Assembly (NCBI GenBank): GCA_029717555.1
Contig: JAMDHS010000013.1
Location: forward strand, 124,001-188,000
Source: Peribolospora baueri
Lineage: Eukaryota
Direction: 5' to 3'
Length of the DNA: 64,000 bases
Part shown: in pieces, positions 18,907 through 32,600 of the stretch
How positions within the stretch are numbered: position 1 is the first letter of the stretch
How the letters are laid out: each line of letters starts with the position of its first letter
Notes under the pieces: generated by a model
What the model was told of the DNA's origin: nothing
Databases searched by the model: none
The model's input: only the letters and a program-made list of their open reading frames with translations
Translations under genes and position numbers: made by a program

Positions 18907-21900
18907 ATGTCGCTCATTACGGACACAGAGTGAGCGAGCCACGGACGAGCCCGAGTTCAGTCCCAGCTGGCTTACCAAAACTTTCGTTCCTTCGTATGCC
19001 AGCTACCTCATCCAGTCCCTTCGCCTTTCTTACCTCCGCCGCATCCCAGACCCCTACGGCCCCCGCGTCATCTCCCTCGACCCGCAAGCCTCCTCCAACG
19101 ACCACGTCCGCGCTGCTGGCCTCACCGATCCCCAACGATGGCCCGAGCTCGCCGCCGCAGCGTCCTCCCCGCCGCCGGTCAGCGCCACCTTCCCTCTCTC
19201 CGGCGGCAAGGCATCCCCTGCCAATCGCCTCTCCGGCTGGGGCTACAAGCCTGGCGGCGGAGGCTCCACCAGTCTTCGATACACTCAGACCGTCGTCGGC
19301 CCTGGGAGAACGGGCGCGTTGGGCATGCGCGTCCACGGCAAACGCGCCGCTGGCGTCGAAGACGTGCGCTCCCCCGGAGCCAACACCGCTCCCGTACCCG
19401 TTGCCTCCGCCTCCAACGTGGCCACCGTGCAAGAGGTGCTAGGAGGCCAGCCCCAATACCTCGACCCGGAGGCGAGCAGCGATGACGAGGACGACGCTGG
19501 TGCGGGTGATGATGAGGCTGAGTACAGTGACGAGAAAGACGAGTGGGTTCCCCCCGTCCTTTCGCGTTGTTCGAAGGGGTCCACCTTTGCTGACCGTCTT
19601 CTTTCCGTCTCCTCTCTATATTTCCCTCCCACCCAGGTCCGCCATCGGTGCCCTCTCGCGAGCGCGAGAAGGCTCTGCGAATGCCTCTCAAGGCACCATC
19701 TCCTCCCTCGCATCCCCCCTCTCTCCGACTCCTGGCCCAAGAGCACTTCCCGCAGATCCGACCCTTCAACCAATCAGCTTCACCCCTCCTAGCAGCAGCC
19801 TCAGCGCGCCCACCTTCAAGGCCGCTGCCTTCCTCGACGACGCCGACCTCCTCGACGACGCTGACGCCGATGCCGAACCGCCCGCCGACAGTCGAGAGGA
19901 GCTCGCCAGCCCAGATGAAGACCATGTCGATTCAGGTCCTGGGCCACCATCAGGGGGAATGGTGGCTTCCACGACGGCGGGCCAGCCGGACGCTGCCATG
20001 GCTTCCGCTTCCAAACCCCCGTCTTCGCCCACACCGTCTCAGAATGAATGGTTCTCCTCTCTTTCCTCTGACCCTTCCACCGTCGCCTCACGACACGCCT
20101 CTCGTCCACAAGTATCCGCGCTGACCGCGCTCATGTCCAAAGCGTCCACCTCGCCTTCCAACCCTTTCGCAGAGTTCTACGCCGGCCTCGCCGTGCCCTC
20201 TTCCGACCCCCCCTCCGCTGGCTTCAAGGTCTTGCTCTACTTCCCTTGGTCGACGACGGCGCGACAGCGCGGCGAACCGATGGAGGTGCGCGTGCGCAAG
20301 GACGCGACGGCAGAGGAGGTCATCGGCCACGGCCTGTGGTCCTACTCCGAGGAAGGCTGGGAACCCCGGGTGGAAGACTTGGGCGACGAGGCGCGGTTGA
20401 AGACCGTTGGCTGGACGCTTCGCGTCGTCGAGGACGGAGAGGTGGACGACGACTATCCCGGTGCGTTCTTTCCGCCCGCCCCTCCCTCCGCCGATCGGCA
20501 CTGATACCGTGGTCGCGCCTCGCTTCCTTTCGTCGTTCCGTTTCACTCCAGCCGTCGATCGCATGCTAACGCTCTCCAAGTTTGGCGATAACGAGTTTGC
20601 TATATGCCAAGCCACACCTATCCAAAGTGAGCGCTTTCTCAACCTCTCCGCTGAACTCCGAACCGTCTCGCCGAGCAAGCGGTCTCTCCCCTCTTCGTTC
20701 CCGCACAGTCAAACAGAACGAGATGACGCAAGCCAACATCCGACGTCGCGCCTCTCGAGTCATGGCCACAGGTCGCAAGCTCCTCGCGCCCAATGCCTTT
20801 GCCCAAGCCAACGCTGGAGCCACTTCCATAGCCGAAGGCGGCGGTGGTGGAGCGGCGGCTGCGCCACGCACCATGTTGGGCACACCCATCATCGCCACCG
20901 GCCTCTCCCGGTCAGCGACGGCATCTGGCCCGCCCATCTTCCTCAGGGTGCTCGTGACGCCGAACCCAGAGGTGCGATACAAGACGACGATCAACGTACC
21001 ATCTGACATGTACCTCGCCGACGTGTTGGAGCTCATCTGCCGAAAGCGGCAGCTCGGCAACGTCGACGAGTGGGCGCTCGTCGTGCACGTGCCGGACGAG
21101 AACAAGGACGTTGTTGTACTGCTGGACCGCACCATCGAAAGCTTGGAGGGAAAGCACGACCTCGCGCTCGTCAAGAGGAAGGCCATCCTCGGCGCTAGCG
21201 CGGGCGCGGGCGCGTTGACGGGCCAGAGCACGAACCCGAACGGTGAGCCCAGACGGTCTGCAGACGACGGACGGACGGGTGGGACGAGGTTTTCGCTGAC
21301 CCCGTCGCCATCTGCTTCGTCCTTCCCGCGCTGGCTCGCAGCATCCATATTCAAAAACACGTCGGAACCCAGCCAGCCCAAATACGTCACCGGCACAGAC
21401 TTTACAGCCGCGTACAGGGTGAATATGAGTCGGCACGTCTCGACGACGCTTGGACACGCATTCTGATCGATTCGATCCCGTGACTCGCCTGCCCCGCCGC
21501 AGAAATACGCCGTAAATCGGAAAATGCCCATGTTCGTAGGTCGGCACGAGCGAGTGCTCACCCTCGATGGAGACTGGGTACACATCAGGTGAGTTGCCGT
21601 CGCCCGTCCACCCAAAACCTCGCTCGCTGATCTGACCCCTTTCTTACCTCGATCACTTCACTTCCGACCCCTTACCTCAATCACTTCACTTCCGCACCGC
21701 TTGCTTCAGGTCGCCCGAGGCACGCGCATTCCACACCAAGACCTCCAACTTTCACATTAACAACGTGATCAGCTGTAAGCAGAGTCGAAAGACGCCCAAC
21801 TCGTTCAAGCTCGTCGTCTGGCGAGATGGAGATACGAAGCGGTATGATTTTGAAGCTGAGAATGAGAAGCAGGCCGGTGAGTTTCGCCTCGCCCTTCGTC

Positions 21901-22103
21901 CGCCGGCCAAGCCGAAGCCAAAGCCACTGGCGAGAAGACTTAGCGTTCGCATGCCGACGGAAAGCCTGACCGAGCCGAACTGATCCGAACCGGCCCGTTT
22001 TACCGTTTGCCATCTCTCAGCCGAGATCATTGCCTACGTTCAGGCGGTCAAGCGACGACATTCCCGTGAGGCGGCGGCTGGGGCGAGACGTAATGCCGGA
22101 TAG
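18907..22103 (+). CDS. SIN1: TORC2 subunit Sin1/Avo1
   Basis: N-terminus MSLITDTDYLIQSLRLSYLRRIPDPYGPR; CRIM-like GHGLWSYSEEGWEPR..WTLRVVEDGEVDDDYP; RBD-like VPSDMYLADVLELICRKR; PH domain RKMPMFVGRHERVLTLDGDWVHI and KRYDFEAEN. Confidence 0.92.
21643..21694 (+). repeat. 24-nt direct repeat inside a SIN1 intron
   Basis: CTTACCTC(G/A)ATCACTTCACTTCCG at 21643-21666 and 21671-21694. Confidence 0.85.
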
Positions 22104-22165: not shown

Positions 22166-25100
22166 TCAGATGTCCATCATATCTACATAATTCCCTTCGG
22201 ACGGTGGTGGCGATGACGAGGAAGAGGGAGAGGGAGAACTAGCGGGCAGCGTCGGTTGCGCTCGCTTTCGTGGCGGTGGCACCTCGTCCGAGTCGCTGTC
22301 GCTGAGCAGCCAGGACATGTCCTGCGCCGCTGGCGGCCGGGCCGGACGGTCGGTGGAGGAGGGCGACGACAACGTCAAGCTCGAACCGCTCGGGCCTCCT
22401 CGTGCCTCGCCGGCAGACGGCTGTCCCTCCTCGTCTTCTCTCCCGGCGTCTTGGTCAGAACGACGCAACTTGCGCAAGCCCAGACTCCTCTGCTTCTTCC
22501 CGCCGCCGTTGCGAGTCGTGTCAGGCGGGCGGTGACTAGGTGTGGCGGTCAGCAGAGAATCGAGACCCGCTTCGATCGCTTCGTCGTCTTCATCCTCGTC
22601 CAAGCGCAGCAACAGCTCTTCCTCCGCCGCTTTTTCCTTTCCCTTTCGTTTGGCGCCCCCGCGGCCCGATGTCAACAAGGTGGCAGCGGTCATAAAAGTC
22701 GTTATCGCTCCCTCGGGCATGTTCCTCGCCGGATCGCTGTTCCGCTTCCTCTTCGTCCCTGTGGTGCTGTTGCTGACCTTGCGATTGGAGCTGCGTCTGC
22801 GCACGTACTTCTCCACCGCCACCACCTTCTCTACCGATCGCGTGTTGTATTCGCGGGGTACGAGTCGCTCGCAGTCCTCGTAGAGCTCATAGACCGTGCC
22901 CGCCGTGATGCCTTTTTGAACGTGCTTGTACGCGTCTTGCGCATGACGCCAGCTTTGCTCTTCTCGACCCTCCGACATCAAGACGACGATGCGGCCCTCA
23001 CGTTTGCGCCCAGTGCGGCCGACGCGTTGGAGCTTCCGAATAGAGGTCGAGCAGGGTGGATTAGTGTCAGTGAGCGAGAGCAAAAATCGGCGTCCCAAAG
23101 AAGAAAAAAAAGTCCGAACCGGCGCTCACCATTCGAACCGAGTCCTTGACCGCCTCATAACAGACGATCAGATCGACTTCGCCGATGTCCAGACCCTCTT
23201 CGCCGATGGAAGTGGCGACCAGAACGTTGAATTCGCCTTCCTTGAAACGACGGATTGTCTGATCACACGGCACGGCGGCACGAAGGCGCACATCAAGGTC
23301 AATCTCTCCCTCGCTCTCAAACCGCACCGCCAGTCGGATGCAGCCAGAGAGGATTGCATGTCGGCCAACTCACCTCTCCTTGGTCCTTCTGCCTCATGCC
23401 CCTTCCGCCAGCAGAGTCCTGGGCCTGCCCTACGAACTGCGTCGCCCTCAATCCACCTTCGTTGAGCGCTTGCACGATCTCCTGCACTCCAGCGCGGAAC
23501 TGACAGAACACCATGATCCTCGTCTCAGCAGCTTGCTCCCGAGGCGGCGGGTCGCCGTTCTCGTCCAGGTCGGCCAACAGATCTCGCTGCATGGCCTCCC
23601 TTTCTTTACTCTCAAAGTGGTCCTTGACGACGACGAGAAGTCTCTCCATCTTCGGATGCTCGTATCGGCCCGTGGGTGTTCGAAGGCTCTCGATCGCGCG
23701 TTTCATGTCCTTGAAAACCGGGTTGCTTTCAGTGAAGAGCTTGTTGGACGTCGACGCGCCCTTCTTCTTGCCGCTGCCTCCGTTCCCGCCGGATTCCAGC
23801 TCGGTGACGGCAGATTGAAACATGCCCACGGACTCCTCGACCAAATACTGCATCGCGCGTGCCATGGACTGAAGCGTTTTCAGGCTTGTCCACGCCCAGG
23901 GCTGACGGTTGAGCAAGCCCCTTTTCTGGGGATTGCCACGCGTTTTTTGGATGACGTATGCATGGAGTAAGACGGGGTCTTGAGGATGAAGGATGCCTTG
24001 TGCTACCAAAGGCTTCATGATGGTCTGAAAGGGGAATAGACCAAAGAGATGAGACGACGGTGATATTCGCAGGTGCCCATTCCAGCACTCACGTTCATGA
24101 GTTCCGCCCATTGGTCCCGTATCAAGCGAACTGTAGGTCCGAGTTCGACTTTCTCCTGTTGCTCCGTCTACAACCAAGGTGGAAACATCTCGCCATCAGG
24201 GCAATGTAGCTCTGCTCCAAAACGAAAGGGAACGAACCTTTTTGTGGACATAGTCCCGAATGTCCAAAGCAGCCTCGCTTCTGATCTCGATATGCCCGAT
24301 GTGCAAGTTGTCAATGACCTCCTGCACCTTGTCCGCATGGTTGCCCGGTGTCGCCGTCAGCGCGAGCACGCGAAAGTAAGGGTTTACCGGCATCATAAAA
24401 CGAATAATTTCCGCATAGGCGTAGTTGCCTGTTGCCCTGTGGGCTTCGTCTGGACAAATGAAAAGCCACAAAGATCGTCTGAGTGGAAAGCCAGACGACT
24501 CGGGCAGAATCTGAATGCTCACCTATAACTAGGCATATGATGTCTCGTGCGTCCAAAGTCCCCTTCTGAAGGTCGTTGTGAAGAGTCTGCCATGACAAAG
24601 TCGTCCAGCCTCAGCAGGGCCATGGTGGGTGCGCAGAGAGCAGAACATGTGTCGTCAAGTAAAGCCTACCTGTGGAGTCATGTAGAATACTCGGCGAGTA
24701 GCGTACTAAATAGAAAAGAAAGAAAGCGGGCGCCACGTGAGAGATCGTCCAAATCGACGGTCTGAACGATTCGCCGAGTGGGCTATGATTGACTCGCCTC
24801 TTCTTCCCGAATCGCTCTACTCTTCTCGCCTGTGAGTTCAGCAGCATCATTGCCCGGTATGCCGCATGTCTCATGACAAGCTTCGACCTGCTGCGCAACG
24901 AGGGGTTTCGTAGGCGCGACGAAAATGACTAAAATGACAGACGTACGAGCGCGTATGGTGAGCTGGCCGGGCTCTTGTTCGTGCCACAGTGATGATGCGT
25001 GCCTACCCTTGCCCTGAGGAAACCATCGATAAAAGTTGAGCATAACCACGCCAGCGATGAATGTCTTGCCGAGACCGGTTGGAAGAGAGACCAATACGTT

Positions 25101-26343
25101 GCTAAGGAGAAGGATCAAGGATCAAGGTCACACGGTATGAGAAAGGGACTGACTTTGTCAGCACACACGAACCGGGTCCAAAGCCGACAATCGTGGTTGC
25201 AGACCGATGCTCACTTGAAAAGCGTCTTTTGGACAATGTTAAACTGATAATCACGCTTTGGCTTGTTCAGAGGGTATACCCATGTCTGGGCGGCTTCAGG
25301 ATCTATCTTCAGCTTCATAGGAGGCGGCTGTCGGAAGAATGGAAAGGAAATGCATCGTCGAAACATGGAAAAAAACGGTAGCGTGATGAAAGAGAACTCA
25401 CAGGCCTGAAGACAGTGGCACGACCAAAGGTTGGAGAGCGCAAGAAGAGGATACAATGAGATTTCCCTGGCGTCTTTGAACGGAACTGAGACGACCGGAC
25501 GCTTACCCCGCTGCGTACGGACGATCAAAGAGAGACCCCGGTCAGGGTCTAATCAGTCAAAGGAAAATGCAGTTAAGGGATTGGAAAAAAAGTGAAATGG
25601 GACCCACGAGGAATGTTGGCAAGGCCAGCAACAGGACCCACAACTTCGGTCTCATCGTCGTCAATGTCGACATCGCCGTCGTCATCCTCGAAGTAAGTTT
25701 CGCTGTCCCTCCCCTTTCTCCGCCTCCGCCCCGTCTGCGCGAAAGCCGTCTTGTCCCACTTCTTCCGCAATCCTAGCGCCTGTTTCGCCGGGCTCTGACT
25801 CGACAACCCAGCCCAGAGTCCTTCCCCAGCACCACGAAATGATGCCATAACGCCTGACGCAGGCGCGCTTTGTGACAGCATCCCTGGGCCGGCCGAAGTC
25901 GACGGACCGGGCGGGGTGCGTCGAAAGCTAGGAGAAGAGCTGGATTCTTGGCCAGAAGTAGATGGGACTGCTGCTACCCCTCCAAACAGCGTGCGCTGTC
26001 TGAGCGTCTGTGAAGAAGGCGTTGATCGAGCGAGAACGGTGGACCGCGTTGGTGACTTTGGCGAGGCGGTTGGCGCTGATCGAGCGAGGACGGTTGAGCG
26101 CGATGGTGACCTTTGGGACGAGGATGACCCAACGGCAAAGCCACTGTCCTTGCCACTGCTTCTGCCCTCCACACCTCCGCTGCTCGCTCGAGCGTTGGCA
26201 TCGGCGGCTCCATGGGTGGACGTCGTTCGTGAGGGTGCCTGCGGTGGAGGGGCGTATAGGCGCTCGAACCGGTCGATCTCCTGGAGCTCTTCTGCCTCCA
26301 GATCGCCAAACTCTTCGAAGAAGTCATCCTCGCCGTCCGCCAT
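22166..26343 (-). CDS. MPH1: ATP-dependent DNA helicase Mph1/FANCM
   Basis: [72 protein letters not shown] and [12 protein letters not shown]. Confidence 0.96.
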
Positions 26344-26658: not shown

Positions 26659-29600
26659 TTAGAGATTCGCCAAATGCCACTCCAGCACCTCCGCCAGAAC
26701 ACCCAAATCGTGGTACTTTGCGATGTTGCCCAAACTTCGGAGCTTGCGGACCATCTCAGCACGAGTAGTCTTGCAGCCCCACACGCCGGAACATTCGCAG
26801 TGGCTGCTCAAGTAGTCCGCCTTGATCTGCCTGCATTTGGTGCATTGCAAGTCCTGCAGCTGGTACGCGGTGACGTGCCGGCGGACGACGTCGACGAGCT
26901 TGCTCTCGATCCCTCGCCTGTCGTATGGCGTCTTACAGCTCGCACATTGCCAGACGCGCGCCGTAGACGTACCGCCCGGGAGAGGTTTCCCGAGGGCATC
27001 GACGGCGGGCAGCGGCAAGAGATCGGCGTCACGACAAAGGTCAAAGTCGCGCATGTCGTTGCAGTAGGTGCAGATGACCAGTGGCAGCTTGAACGGGTTT
27101 TCGCATGGGTCCCTCCACATGGCCTCATCGGCGAAGTCGCGCACACCGATGTAGTGGAGAAGGTTACGCCTAATGACCTGCACCTCGACGCTGAGCTCCT
27201 GTGCTAAGCCGAGAACGGCTACGGTCGTCTTGATGAATTCCAGCACCGGGTTCGTCGGGTTCAGATGCGTGCCGGGCAAGATGGGGAAAGCGTATTGCAT
27301 CTGCAGATCCGGGTCGACGGCCGCATGAGACATCTCGTGAACCGCGTTGTCGACGACCTTGAGGAGGTGACGGAATAGCTGTTCGTTCACGTATTTCTTG
27401 ACGCGCTGCACCTCCTTCGTCTTCACCGGGTTCGCTTGCGTCTGCGTCATGTTCTGCAGCACCTTGAGCGGAGTGCGGAGCTGAGCCGCGGATTGACGCT
27501 TACAGTGGCACACCTTATAGATGAACTGGCCGATGACGTGCTCAAAGTGGGGTTGGAGCGCCAGGGGTAGGAACGACTGGACATTCCACGCCATCTCCAC
27601 CTGGAACGCCATTGTCGGCTCGACGGCCGCCGGGTTGTGGTCGATGACGCCGCCAAAGTTCGCATTGTCCATCCAGAGCAGGGTGTCCCAGAAATGGACC
27701 ATATCGAGGCTGACGTGCTTGAACAATTGGCGAGAACAAACGGCGCTGAGGATGTAGTTGCCATAGGCGTAGGCGCTCCCCGCCGTCGGTTTGGTCGTGA
27801 GCAAGAAGATACGACCGAAGCTGGCATACACGACGCTGGAGCCGAGCCTCTTAAATTCGGCCAGAAGCTGTAGGAAGGTCTTTTTCATCAGGCCGTGGAT
27901 GAAGCGGTGAAGAGCCGGATCGAAAAGGGCCGACAAATTCGAGCTAACCCATCGCCAGAAGTGCGCGACAAGAAGATCGCTCAGCTCGCTGCCACCTCGG
28001 GCCTTCTCCAGATACCACGACTTGACCATACTCTTGAGCGCCAGGAACGTTTGCTGCGAAAGTACTGCGTCGCCCAGCGCCAACGCTGAATGTGCAGTAC
28101 CCTTCGAATACTCGTCGAGGGTGTGCGAGGACGCGTCGAAAGCCATAGCGCCGGCGCCGCTGCCCTCCATCTCGTTTACAAGTGCCGACTGCAGCACGGC
28201 GTTGACCGCGAGGTCGCGCAGCTCGATTTCCAGACAGACGTTGGAGTAGCAGCCTGGCTTGGAAAACTCTGGGCTGGCAAGGTCGTCCGCCTGCTGGGCA
28301 TGCGCATCTTCTTCCCGGCCACCCAGATCCGGTGCCAAGCCGGGCGCCCACCATAGCACCATATCCTGCCTGATGAGGCGTCGCGCGAATTCGATGTCGG
28401 CGAGGAATATGGGTATATCCTTGCCAACGTTGCAGAGCGGGACGTCGAAGTGCGCAGACAAGGCGATGCGCTGGGTGACCCAGGACGAGATATGAAGGTA
28501 ATGCCCAAGCATCCTCTTCGAACTAAACAACTGCCATCCGAGCGGAGGGAAGTTGTCTTCGCGCGACATGCCGTCGACCATGAGTACGGGGAACTCGGAA
28601 ACCGAGGGGACGTGCCGCTCGTAGTAAGACAGCTCCCTCGCCGAGCAGACGACGAGCATGGTGGACCGACCCGACCGCTGGGCGACGAGCTCCTTGGATA
28701 GAGCTCTGAACGCCAACGACTCTTGTCGATAGAAGTTGGTGTCAAACTTGATCCTGTTGGAATAATCGAAGACGCCGGCCCCATCCTTCAGTCCGCCTTT
28801 GTCCCTAGCAGCTGCGACCCGATCGGCGTAGGCTTTCTCGAGGTTCGGCAGTTGACGTAGACCCGCCGATTCCACGACATATACTTTGGCTACTGCCGCG
28901 TCCGGCGTGAAAAGCCCGAAAATATGTCGCCCGTCCTTCGCTGCATGATACAAGTAGAGGTACCTGAGCTCTCGGCCGCGACCGTCGCCAAGGTATTTGT
29001 GGCGCGCAAGCGAGGGGGCGGCTTTGACGAGGTCCTCGAGGTCGAAGCCAGTGTCGAGACCTTTACTCAGTCGCCCCATGCCCGCCTTGTCCATGGCGCA
29101 GAAGGCCCCCAGTTTGAGAAGAGCGCGCATCTCGAGCGGCACTTGTGTTTCGTAGACGCCGTCCACGTTGGGATGATTGAGTAAGCTGGAGAAGTGCGAC
29201 TCCTCCTGCAAGAAGACGTTCTCAGGAACGCTGATCTTAAAGAGGTTGAGAGCAGGGTGGCCGCGGGGGAGAGTGCGCACGAGCTGCTCGGCACGATACG
29301 ACGGGAGAAACGTGCGTTCCCGAGGCAAGCTCTTCAGATTTAGGTAGAACTCGCGGGGTATGCGAAGCTTGACGGCCTGTAGTTGATGGTTGATGGATAG
29401 CCACAGCTTGAATTCGCCCGGACGCGCGGTCGGAACGATTTGAACGACGTCCCATACGCTAGAGGCGAGCGTCATCGACCTTTGCTGAAACAGAGAACCC
29501 AACGCTCCTCTGGCAGGTCCAGGAAGCATGGCATGCCCATTCGCACGCTGTCGCTCCCTTCGTTCCTCGCGCTGCCTTCGCCAACGCTTCCGCATCACCC

Positions 29601-32600
29601 GCAGCCACCCAGAGTAATCCTCGCGCATGTCAGGAGCCGATTCCTCAAGGTCGATGGCGCCCGCCACAGCCGCTTTGCTCCGCCGTGCGGAGGAGAGTGA
29701 GGCAGCCTTTCCGTTGAGTGCGTCAAGTCTGGGCTGACTGGGCTCGCCAAAGCTCTCGATGTCCGGAACCTCGGCTTTTGCGAGGGCCGGCTTAGCCATG
29801 ACCGCTTGTTTGGCGAACATGTCGGTCAGCTTGTGCTGCTTGAACTTGTCCGTCCTAGCGGTAACGCGTTTGAAGAGCCAATCGGGATGCCGAATCCGAG
29901 GAACCGGATTAGTTACTTTTTGCATCGCCGCGGGGATGGTGATCAATTTCTGGATGACTGAACCCAAGCGCTCAACGTAGTAGCCCCAATCCAGGACAGA
30001 GCGGAGGTCGAAGTCGGACAAGCTATTGTCCTTGAGCCACTTGCGTAGGAAGTGTCGCTTGACGGACGGCTCAGCAGAGAAGATCGTGACCGGCACTGCT
30101 CGCTCCGTCACAGGCGCACCTTGTGGTTTGGAGGAGATGATGAACCGACAGGACAAACCCTTATCCTTGACCATTTGCTCGCCGAGGAATTCTGCCAGAC
30201 GTCTAGCCGTGCTGATCGATGTTGACTTTTGGCCCCCGTACTCGGCCAATGTCTTCGACATGCTTCTGTTCTCAGCAATGAGATCCACAAGTTCTCCATC
30301 GTCGAGGCTAGCGCCTTTGCTGAAAAGTACGTCGAGCCACTGATCTGCCACCTTGGCCACCGCCGCATAGCACTCGTCGAGCGTCTCGCCAAGCAAGAAT
30401 TTCTCGAAGATCTGACCTTGAAAAATCTTGATGAGTTGCAACTCGCCGCGGCGCTTGACCTCGAATCCTTTCAGCTCCGCCAGTGACCCGTCGTGGTTGA
30501 AGACGGCGTAGCGCTTCTTGAGCAGCTTGTCCTCTTCCTTGGACGACGGCAGGATCATGGCGCGATACGGACCGTCGAGCTCGAAGAAGATGGAGTTCTC
30601 ACTGTGTACCCCATAGACGCCGGCGTCCTTGTCGACCAGATCGTGATACTGATGGTTTGTGAAGCGGGCATGGACGAGGTGGTTGAGCATGGTACAAGGA
30701 TACGAGATCTTCAGGGATTTTCCGTTGAGGAACTTAAACGTGAAGTCCTCGGGAAAAACACCGGGTAGCATGCACCAAATGCCGTCGGTGTCGAGTTCGA
30801 GCGGTCTGCCGATCTGCTCGACGAGCTGGCGCGCCATCTGAATGATCGTTGCACCGGTCAGGCATGTGATACCGGCCATCTCCATTGAGTACCACCGAGC
30901 GCCCTTGCGCATGACGTAGCCGTAGAAGGAGTTGAGAATACACTTGTGCGCAAGTTGAAGCGAGTCGTAGAGGACGATCATCTTCTTCGCCTCCACGATC
31001 TCCGTGAGCGAGTCGCCTTCGACAGCCTTGTCGAGGTTCTTTTTCCAGGTCCTATGCGCGAAGGGAAAGGGCGAAGCGAATTGAGTTCAAGTTGCAATGC
31101 AGGTAACGGATGGCAAGCGTCACGTCGAACTCACTTGTGCAGGCCCTTGTACTCATAGCGACGGTCTCGGAACGCGCGCACTGTGTCAATGTAGAATGGG
31201 TTTTCGCGCTGACATATGGTCGCCTCCTTGTACACGATCTTCGTCTCGTGCGTCTTCTTATAGACTTTGCGCGAATAGTCACCAAGACGTTTGTGAAGGA
31301 GGCTGGTCTGCTCGGAAGGAGTCAGATCGGTGAATTGGCGTTTCGGCCCATCGAGTTGCTTCGGCGGGAAGGATTCTTGGTTGAGCGCATGTTGGATCAT
31401 GTTGAACTCGTCGCGCTTTGCCGGAAAGTATTCGCCGCGCCAGGCCCATGTCATCCGACGATCGCACGTCTTGCCCGGGCGGTTGTAGTCACACGTTGCG
31501 CACGTCGCATCGTCCACGACACTGTCGGGTTGCAAACGGTTCGAAAGCATGATGTTCGGATACATTGCGGCGACGTCGAGGTGGTAGATGAGCGGCTTGT
31601 CCTGGCGCAAAGGTTGATCCCGCATCGTTTCCAGGGCGGATCGGATCTGGGCCTTGACTTCGTCATAGTTAGCGACGTCTCCAAGAGCCATCTTTCCCTC
31701 CTCAACGATGGCGAATTGAAGTGCTGCATCAAGTTCATCGATAAGCTGGTCCAATGCGAAGGTTGAGGTGAGTCAATGTCAACAGCAATGAAGCAGGCAG
31801 ACGCCAACAGGCCGACATCTGAACTCACCTGCTGACAAGCTTGTGGCTCAACCTTGAAATCTGTCGGTATGTCGCTGCGAAAGACACCGGCCTCGAGAGC
31901 TTCGACGTGCCCGCCCACGTACGTCTCAGACTCCAGCAGATGACCTTCGAACATGGCCCCGGTCGGATCGACATGACGATTCGGCATGATGATCTCCGCC
32001 ACGTAGGCTTGGACCTACAAGGGCGTAAATAAGACAGGAGTGTCAAATGTAAGTCAATGAAAAGCTGTGCTTCCACAAGTCAATAATCGGGCCCTCACCA
32101 TTAGCAAAGTCTCGCACAGTGTACCCGAACCCTTCCTCAAGACTTCGTCCGGATTGAGGGGAATGATGTTACAGAGGGAGAAGATAAACGGGTGCACGTA
32201 TTTCATATAGAGGTAGTACGTCGCGACTGCGTCGGACACCGAGTACTGGGCGAGCGTTTGCGGCTGCTCCACAGCGTACCTGTAGAAACGAAAGCAGACC
32301 CGTGAGCTTAAGACAAACAGGCGCCGGCCTAGTTACGTGCGGCCAAAAACGACGCACGGAGTCATCAGTTCTGGGTCAAGTTCGAGAGGATCGTATCCAA
32401 GCTTGGCCACCGTGACGGCCTTGAGACCTTGACTCCCTTGGGGAAGGTAAGAGTCGCGCTTCACCCATCTGTGAATCGACCATGGCCGCAAATGTATTCA
32501 GCTCTCTATGCGCCTTGCGCGACGCATATGACCACACCTCACCTGAAACAGTCCATGTGCGCACAAGACCTGCTCTTGAACTCGTCCTCCGAGTCCCGAG

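Follow-up and report, generated by a model that had tools for sequence, protein, structure and literature searches.

Two consecutive 4-nt exons just before the helicase domain of basidiomycete MPH1/FANCM, probably constitutive and apparently undescribed

The window analysed here, a stretch of 64,000 nucleotides, carries on its minus strand a gene that we have modelled as 13 exons with 3117 nt and 1038 aa, ending in a single terminal stop (Table 1). The model comes from protein-guided spliced alignment, with one intron hand-corrected to GC-AG at a position common to orthologues; this intron, whose position is GT-AG in agaricomycete orthologues, is needed for the reading Y-A-T-R-R-V-F-Y-M. When exons were searched singly, Pfam returned the DEAD/ResIII and Helicase_C domains, with zero matches for three other exon pieces of the gene, and the DEAH motif II is assembled across an intron. 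The window protein groups in the gene tree with proteins named MPH1, and one of its orthologues (P0031, not the window protein itself) finds its nearest solved structure in FANCM 9el5, with an E value of 1.7e-124, as against 7e-26 for RIG-I. These comparisons support an assignment to MPH1/FANCM, nearer to FANCM/Mph1 than to the RIG-I or Dicer helicases. The gene has in common with the FANCM/Mph1/Hef SF2 translocases the DEAD/ResIII and Helicase_C domains, the DEAH motif II and a PIP-like N-terminal motif, but, unlike these homologues, the modelled protein ends without the C-terminal SF[VC]V..D tail (22166-23032, minus strand), which is present in 10 of the 11 homologues compared. A tblastn search with nine homologue tails gave no match near MPH1, where the gap to the convergent neighbour is only about 180 nt.

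Two further genes flank MPH1. The gene for the catalytic subunit of DNA polymerase epsilon (POL2) comes to its end about 315 nt before MPH1 starts, so that two replication/repair genes stand in tandem, and a SIN1/AVO1-like TORC2 subunit is convergent with MPH1. The 3-kb flanks of the 80 MPH1 loci described below gave no match to either of them, be it the C-terminus of POL2 or the SIN1/AVO1-like gene.

Table 1. Coordinates of the MPH1 gene parts, the microexon pair and the neighbouring genes, numbered within the window
Feature	Positions	Strand	Description
POL2	26659..31086	-	DNA polymerase epsilon catalytic subunit; 1475 codons without stop
MPH1 exon 1	25608..26343	-	736 nt, 245 codons + 1 nt; ATG at 26343; ends in phase 1
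Tandem duplication in exon 1	25986..26100	-	short; STVLARS twice, 18 codons apart
QRTLF	25984..25998	-	aa 116-120; resembles N-terminal PCNA-binding PIP box of FANCM
12-residue motif	25729..25764	-	aa 194-205; KxWD type; conserved in basidiomycete Mph1
Alternative donor candidate GTGGGTCC	25634..25641	-	phase 0; could bypass both microexons in frame
Intron 1	25511..25607	-	97 nt, phase 1, GTGGGT..CAG
Microexon 1, CGGG	25507..25510	-	finishes Pro codon and gives first two Gly bases
Intron 2 (middle)	25406..25506	-	101 nt, phase 2, GTAAGC..CAG
Microexon 2, GCCT	25402..25405	-	Gly wobble base and whole Pro codon
Intron 3	25328..25401	-	74 nt, phase 0, GTGAGT..CAG; acceptor position same in 53 loci
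Exon 4 (PPPMKL...)	25215..25327	-	start of conserved region leading into helicase domain 1
Remaining MPH1	22166..25214	-	nine exons (SF2 helicase and short tail) and nine introns of 68-115 nt
PF00270 and PF04851	24786..25121		DEAD/ResIII
GC-AG intron	24706..24797	-	92 nt
PF00271	23130..23258		Helicase_C
SIN1/AVO1-like gene	about 19443..21983	+	PF16978 CRIM; weak UBL_AVO1

Exon 1 encodes an acidic, low-complexity N-terminal region with motifs common to homologues. The KxWD-type motif is found in 29 of 76 homologues. As for QRTLF, the loose pattern Qx[TS]L[FYDT] occurs in 41 of the 76 homologues having at least 100 aa upstream, a raw count made without a chance control, and the comparison with FANCM uses the letters of the human PIP box. 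By its resemblance we regard QRTLF as a PIP-like motif and a candidate PCNA-binding box. The human FANCM box lies at residues 5-12 (PMC4838364).

Between exon 1 and the conserved region lie two exons of 4 nt each. A sequence-only reading had described them together with three normal-sized canonical introns and the in-frame reading I-P-P-G-P-P-P-P-M-K-L continuing into the helicase; on re-reading the minus strand, the coordinates of both microexons and of all junctions, the intron lengths and this reading proved exact. Both microexons are internal, no longer than 15 nt, and placed between GT-AG introns of normal size. Skipping was said to frameshift the gene before the helicase, and it does: with one microexon skipped the frame stops after aa 250 and with both after aa 255, while retention of intron 1, 2 or 3 leads to a stop after aa 256, 247 or 276, respectively. 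The further statement that the pair is required to keep the frame is true with donor 25607 and acceptor 25328 fixed, but the DNA also holds other in-frame, stop-free paths, among them a single 314-nt intron from donor 25641 to acceptor 25328 and a junction from 25607 to 25549 with read-through. Donor 25641 is identical to donor 25607 both in its octamer, GTGGGTCC, and in score.

How far the window itself singles out the microexon model was examined with splice-site matrices built from 165 downstream introns of MPH1, the greater part of them orthologue introns. A parser that allowed microexons of 1-15 nt, with no demand on their length, sequence or frame, chose CGGG/GCCT as the best of 22 chains; the score of this chain was attained in 13 of 2000 dinucleotide shuffles of the block, none of which (0/2000) held the pattern AG-NNGG-GT...AG-NCCN-GT. 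When in-frame, stop-free paths were enumerated, there were 10,652, the majority having very poor sites. In mean site score six of these surpass the microexon model, each by way of donor 25641 and an intron of 156-314 nt, and the microexon model comes first among the paths in which every intron is at most 130 nt and all site scores are above 0. Its weakest site of six is the intron-1 acceptor, at 3.5 bits, where the 10th percentile of the training set is 3.2. Taken alone, the window sequence is inconclusive for the microexon pair, and the relatives decide.

A metagenome scan matched 206 stretches, 150 of which encode a relative, and the best 80 of these 150 were retained; a search with the large exon gave one match among 1844 candidates. 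Eligible for the comparison were the 53 of 80 loci with an AG at the place where intron 3 ends and with 100 nt or more of upstream sequence (L007 was too short). The 26 loci without that AG mostly look ascomycete-like and read through the site, with L049, L011, L020 and L039 basidiomycete-like and L079 at a contig edge. Conservation in orthologues, named in the sequence-only reading as a check on the pair, is pronounced: a strict pair pattern, composed after the data were seen, is present in 50 of the 53 eligible loci, in addition to the window, and at 0 of 408 ordinary acceptors. Among the three eligible loci without the strict pattern, L023 has the 4+4 arrangement with Gly changed to Gln, L078 has 13+4, and the ascomycete-like L071 has no such structure.

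For counting, L071, L034 and L036 were left out, as they lack either exon 1 or the structure. The other 48 sequences, the window among them, form 25 clusters when the intron blocks are compared at 70% identity, and just 7 when the threshold is 60%, a level near the alignment background of 42-51%, and the window block itself is only 42-51% like that of any orthologue. Across these clusters the second microexon is always 4 nt long (25/25), with C at the first two codon positions in 24 and 23 of 25 clusters, and with wobble positions that vary (A9 G6 T5 C5 and T10 G10 A5). The first is 4 nt in 23 clusters, 7 nt in one and 13 nt in one, the differences being whole codons. Although the parser demanded no frame, its result was in frame for 43 of the 46 loci where a frame could be assigned (four rows were frame-unassigned); in L005, L023 and L027, where its best path was out of frame, the in-frame site is visible by eye. 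The pair pattern was found in 0 of 4600 shuffled orthologue blocks. Position, phase and frame are conserved in orthologues, then, and substitutions are wobble-biased; some lineages have Glu or Gln in place of Gly, so that the constraint is stronger on length and phase than on the letters. From this evidence we conclude that CGGG and GCCT are, very probably, genuine coding exons. In one clade (L001-L006, L012 and L016) the first microexon has expanded to 7 nt, and all eight loci have a middle intron of 76 nt; this constancy suggested a conserved regulatory element in intron 2, a candidate that was rejected, as the identity of the intron is about that of other introns.

Some relatives have done without the introns altogether. 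Locus L049, which is genomic, as seven downstream introns are kept, has lost all three introns precisely and reads F-L-P-L-G-P-P-P-K-M, and it nests among microexon-bearing loci near Suillus. Its junction may serve as a natural, if indirect, stand-in for cDNA, on the reasoning that precise intron loss copies the mature mRNA (as in PMC8831610); an intron-less gene has been used in the same manner in PMC12940212. Starting at Met1, two gene calls, P0043 and P0062, likewise continue across x-G-P without a break, before they enter what looks like the following intron. Other arrangements were also seen. L011 and L020, MPH1-like copies that share a contig at a distance of about 7 kb, both lack the three introns and group with Mrakia, L011 standing on a long branch in the Mph1 tree. 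In L039, whose gene groups with Ustilaginomycotina, one phase-2 intron alone (about 520-620) stands immediately ahead of L-Q-P-M-K-L, and this intron may be the middle one, surviving after loss of the other two.

That gene predictors would stumble at this place had been anticipated, and public models bear it out: five Pleurotus models give five junctions, six Suillus MPH1 models give four versions, and an old Coprinopsis model is garbled. The x-G-P reading is already given by some of the public models, among them ones of Suillus, Lentinula, Pleurotus cornucopiae and Dacryopinax.

The explanation that we favour, and consider likely, is that the two 4-nt exons are ordinary coding exons of basidiomycete MPH1/FANCM, their constitutive inclusion being deduced from features of the DNA. 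They would be the remains between three closely spaced ancient introns of phases 1, 2 and 0, situated in a proline-rich linker just before the helicase domain, where the pair together would supply a conserved x-Gly-Pro. If each short intron is recognised singly, by intron definition, and the introns are removed successively, exon size would be of little importance, and skipped or retained products, with their early stops, would be waste. The splice sites of the orthologues have donor/acceptor medians of 7.3/6.0, 7.1/6.2 and 7.3/5.6 for introns 1 to 3, compared with 6.4/5.3 for ordinary introns. Of 26 agaricomycete-like lineages, 25 retain the trio, and for eight ordinary intron positions retention is 21/24 to 24/24. 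Old introns are the norm in MPH1, given that six of the nine downstream intron positions of the window are common to Agaricomycetes.

The middle intron differs measurably from its neighbours. In the 22 clusters with downstream introns its median length is 66 nt, compared with 52 for intron 1, 52.5 for intron 3 and 52 for the others; it exceeds intron 3 in 22/22, intron 1 in 20/22 and the longest other intron in 17/22, a contrast that counts as one case and not as 22, because the clusters descend from one ancestral intron. The best branch-like motif lies at a median of 26.5 nt from its 3' end as against 14 nt in 142 other introns (nominal p 6e-5, by a crude branch scoring and leaving out L019 and L023), whereas in introns 1 and 3 this distance is no different from that of others (p 0.29 and 0.58). 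The contrast is weaker in the window, where the middle intron, of 101 nt and with its sole branch-like motif 51 nt from the 3' end, compares with 68-115 nt and 9-56 nt in the others. Through its greater length and distant branch point, the middle intron may relieve crowding or deter skipping: lengthening this intron alone makes both single-skip spans longer, and would thus be an economical guard.

The data do not support the on/off splicing switch proposed in the sequence-only reading, as sites are at or near ordinary medians, the flanking introns show no special conservation and at least one lineage has lost all three. We consider it unlikely that controlled skipping of the microexons or detention of their introns, in DNA damage or meiosis, tunes the level of MPH1 through nonsense-mediated decay of the mRNA or a truncated N-terminal peptide. 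It would agree with such a rheostat that every single failure stops at aa 247-276, ahead of the helicase; skipping, however, frameshifts any exon whose length is no multiple of three. The deep conservation of the trio speaks in its favour, but retention is about that of ordinary positions, and L049 has lost the three introns, which are absent also from L011, L020 and L039. By analogy with animal systems, a regulated microexon would be expected to have unusually conserved flanking introns or weak splice sites. Here, neither unusual flanking conservation nor weak sites were found, with the exception of the window's intron-1 acceptor, whose weakness would suit regulation; the sites of the orthologues are not weak, and the identity of intron 2 in four clades (0.75, 0.72, 0.85 and 0.86) falls within or at the top edge of the ranges of other introns in the same clades (0.68-0.73, 0.61-0.77, 0.80-0.89 and 0.77-0.89). 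The longer middle intron, with its predicted branch point farther off, is also on the side of a switch, a longer branch-to-acceptor distance having been reported before regulated vertebrate neural microexons (PMC12871342), and so are a condition-dependent fungal microexon, that of Trichoderma Xlr2 (PMC11121469), and the more frequently detained introns that flank plant microexons (PMC8831610). In its boldest form, the three-intron cluster might be an ancient splicing checkpoint of basidiomycete FANCM, with the middle intron kept long and branch-distant since before the mushroom/smut split as a slow or steerable step, whose detention or skipping would set the MPH1 level in DNA damage or meiosis, and with a lengthened intron between two microexons as a general design rule in intron-definition fungi; we hold this to be improbable. 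The evidence points to ordinary constitutive exons rather than to a switch.

The remaining alternatives concern whether the exons are used at all. That the ancestral pair persists in the DNA while the main mRNA takes another in-frame route, either the 314-nt intron or a cryptic acceptor at 25549 or 25486 with read-through of introns 2 and 3, seems very unlikely: the equivalence of the two donors, a 113-codon open frame across 25552-25211 and the weak intron-1 acceptor would permit it, but the other nine MPH1 introns are all short, the microexon model ranks top among paths with short introns and positive sites, and unused sites would have decayed, whereas the microexons still fit the coding consensus in spite of the low identity of the surrounding block. 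We give still less credence, as extremely unlikely, to a helicase translated from a downstream start at the Met of MKL, with exon 1 and the microexons untranslated or belonging to a separate unit. The helicase domain is wholly 3' of this Met, where several metagenome gene calls start, but these short calls have the look of what a gene caller produces from DNA with introns, and the internal ATG has C at -3. Moreover, exon 1 stays open over 245 codons and has motifs in common with homologues, the frame across the microexons is conserved, and intron-less genes read through from Met1. Finally, it is scarcely conceivable that the 4-nt pieces are not exons but belong to a complex intron (stwintron) or arise from GT and AG sites placed by chance; complex nested introns are known in fungi, and AG-x-GT pairs are common in intron DNA, as the 22 chains in the window illustrate, but the 8 nt survive in the intron-less L049 and the controls gave 0/2000, 0/4600 and 0/408. 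A stwintron, in which taking out an internal intron restores the donor, branch or acceptor of an external one, was also rejected by inspection, as removal of any one intron rebuilds no donor or acceptor at the joint.

With regard to age, the window is sister to the sampled Ustilaginomycotina in both the POL2 tree (SH-aLRT 100) and the Mph1 tree (SH-aLRT 98). The AU test rejects a grouping of the window with Agaricomycetes (p 0.0086), and a grouping with Bartheletia, the best named match of POL2 (54%), was likewise rejected (p 0.001). The pair-bearing loci, for their part, are spread over the agaricomycete part of the tree, near Hysterangium, Rickenella, Dentipellis, Suillus, Mycena and Coprinopsis. 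The position of the window beside Ustilaginomycotina and the presence of the pair across agaricomycete loci imply that it probably predates their split, and, on two quick single-gene trees with midpoint roots and no outgroup, it probably goes back to the common ancestor of Agaricomycotina and Ustilaginomycotina. None of the loci comes from a close relative of the organism that carries the window, and in the Mph1 tree the rust and ascomycete-like rows take odd positions. The organism has no close named relative, yet it is intron-rich, with introns of 68-115 nt.

A number of reports describe microexons with which the pair can be compared. In the long-read annotation of Coprinopsis cinerea, 1,165 gene models (about 9%) have an internal microexon of at most 15 nt, and in 835 genes omission of a microexon leads to a premature stop (PMC12230235). 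The MPH1 pair is like these in being basidiomycete, internal, frame-breaking if omitted and missed by earlier annotation, but that study gives genome-wide counts, whereas here one tandem pair is traced across relatives; the terms 'Mph1', 'FANCM' and 'Fanconi' are absent from five of its supplements (PMC12230235). The 1-nt exon of Fusarium CYP621A is likewise conserved, builds a Gly codon and was demonstrated via orthologues and an intron-less length marker (PMC12940212). It is, however, a single exon in a structural motif, in one ascomycete genus and with RNA reads, while the MPH1 pair consists of two consecutive 4-nt exons in a linker, in several basidiomycete lineages, and is known from DNA. 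The plant microexon clusters are similarly ancient, misannotated and, in some lineages, merged by precise intron loss, with flanking introns that are removed successively; unlike the MPH1 pair, they have RNA support, and the phrase 'two microexons' is absent from the main text of that report (PMC8831610). The 20-nt microexon of Trichoderma virens Xlr2 is also fungal, not a multiple of three, conserved with third-position substitutions, and unannotated, but it encodes part of a DNA-binding domain and has condition-dependent expression shown, beyond the DNA evidence that we have for MPH1 (PMC11121469). The literature searched contained nothing on MPH1/FANCM microexons in fungi, although the Coprinopsis long-read models may already contain the pair. 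Conserved constitutive microexons as a kind are already known, then, and the pair in MPH1 has apparently been undescribed so far.

From a practical point of view, this work corrects a recurring annotation error, as public Agaricomycete MPH1 models disagree at exactly the microexon junction, and the organism of the window is useful in dating basidiomycete introns. The pair also offers a test case for splicing, with two frame-breaking 4-nt exons in distant basidiomycetes, relatives of model mushrooms included, with natural intron-less alleles as controls and with a measurably different middle intron. The MPH1/FANCM helicase has an anti-crossover role, and, if regulation were true, the cluster would place a conserved splicing control on this DNA-repair helicase.
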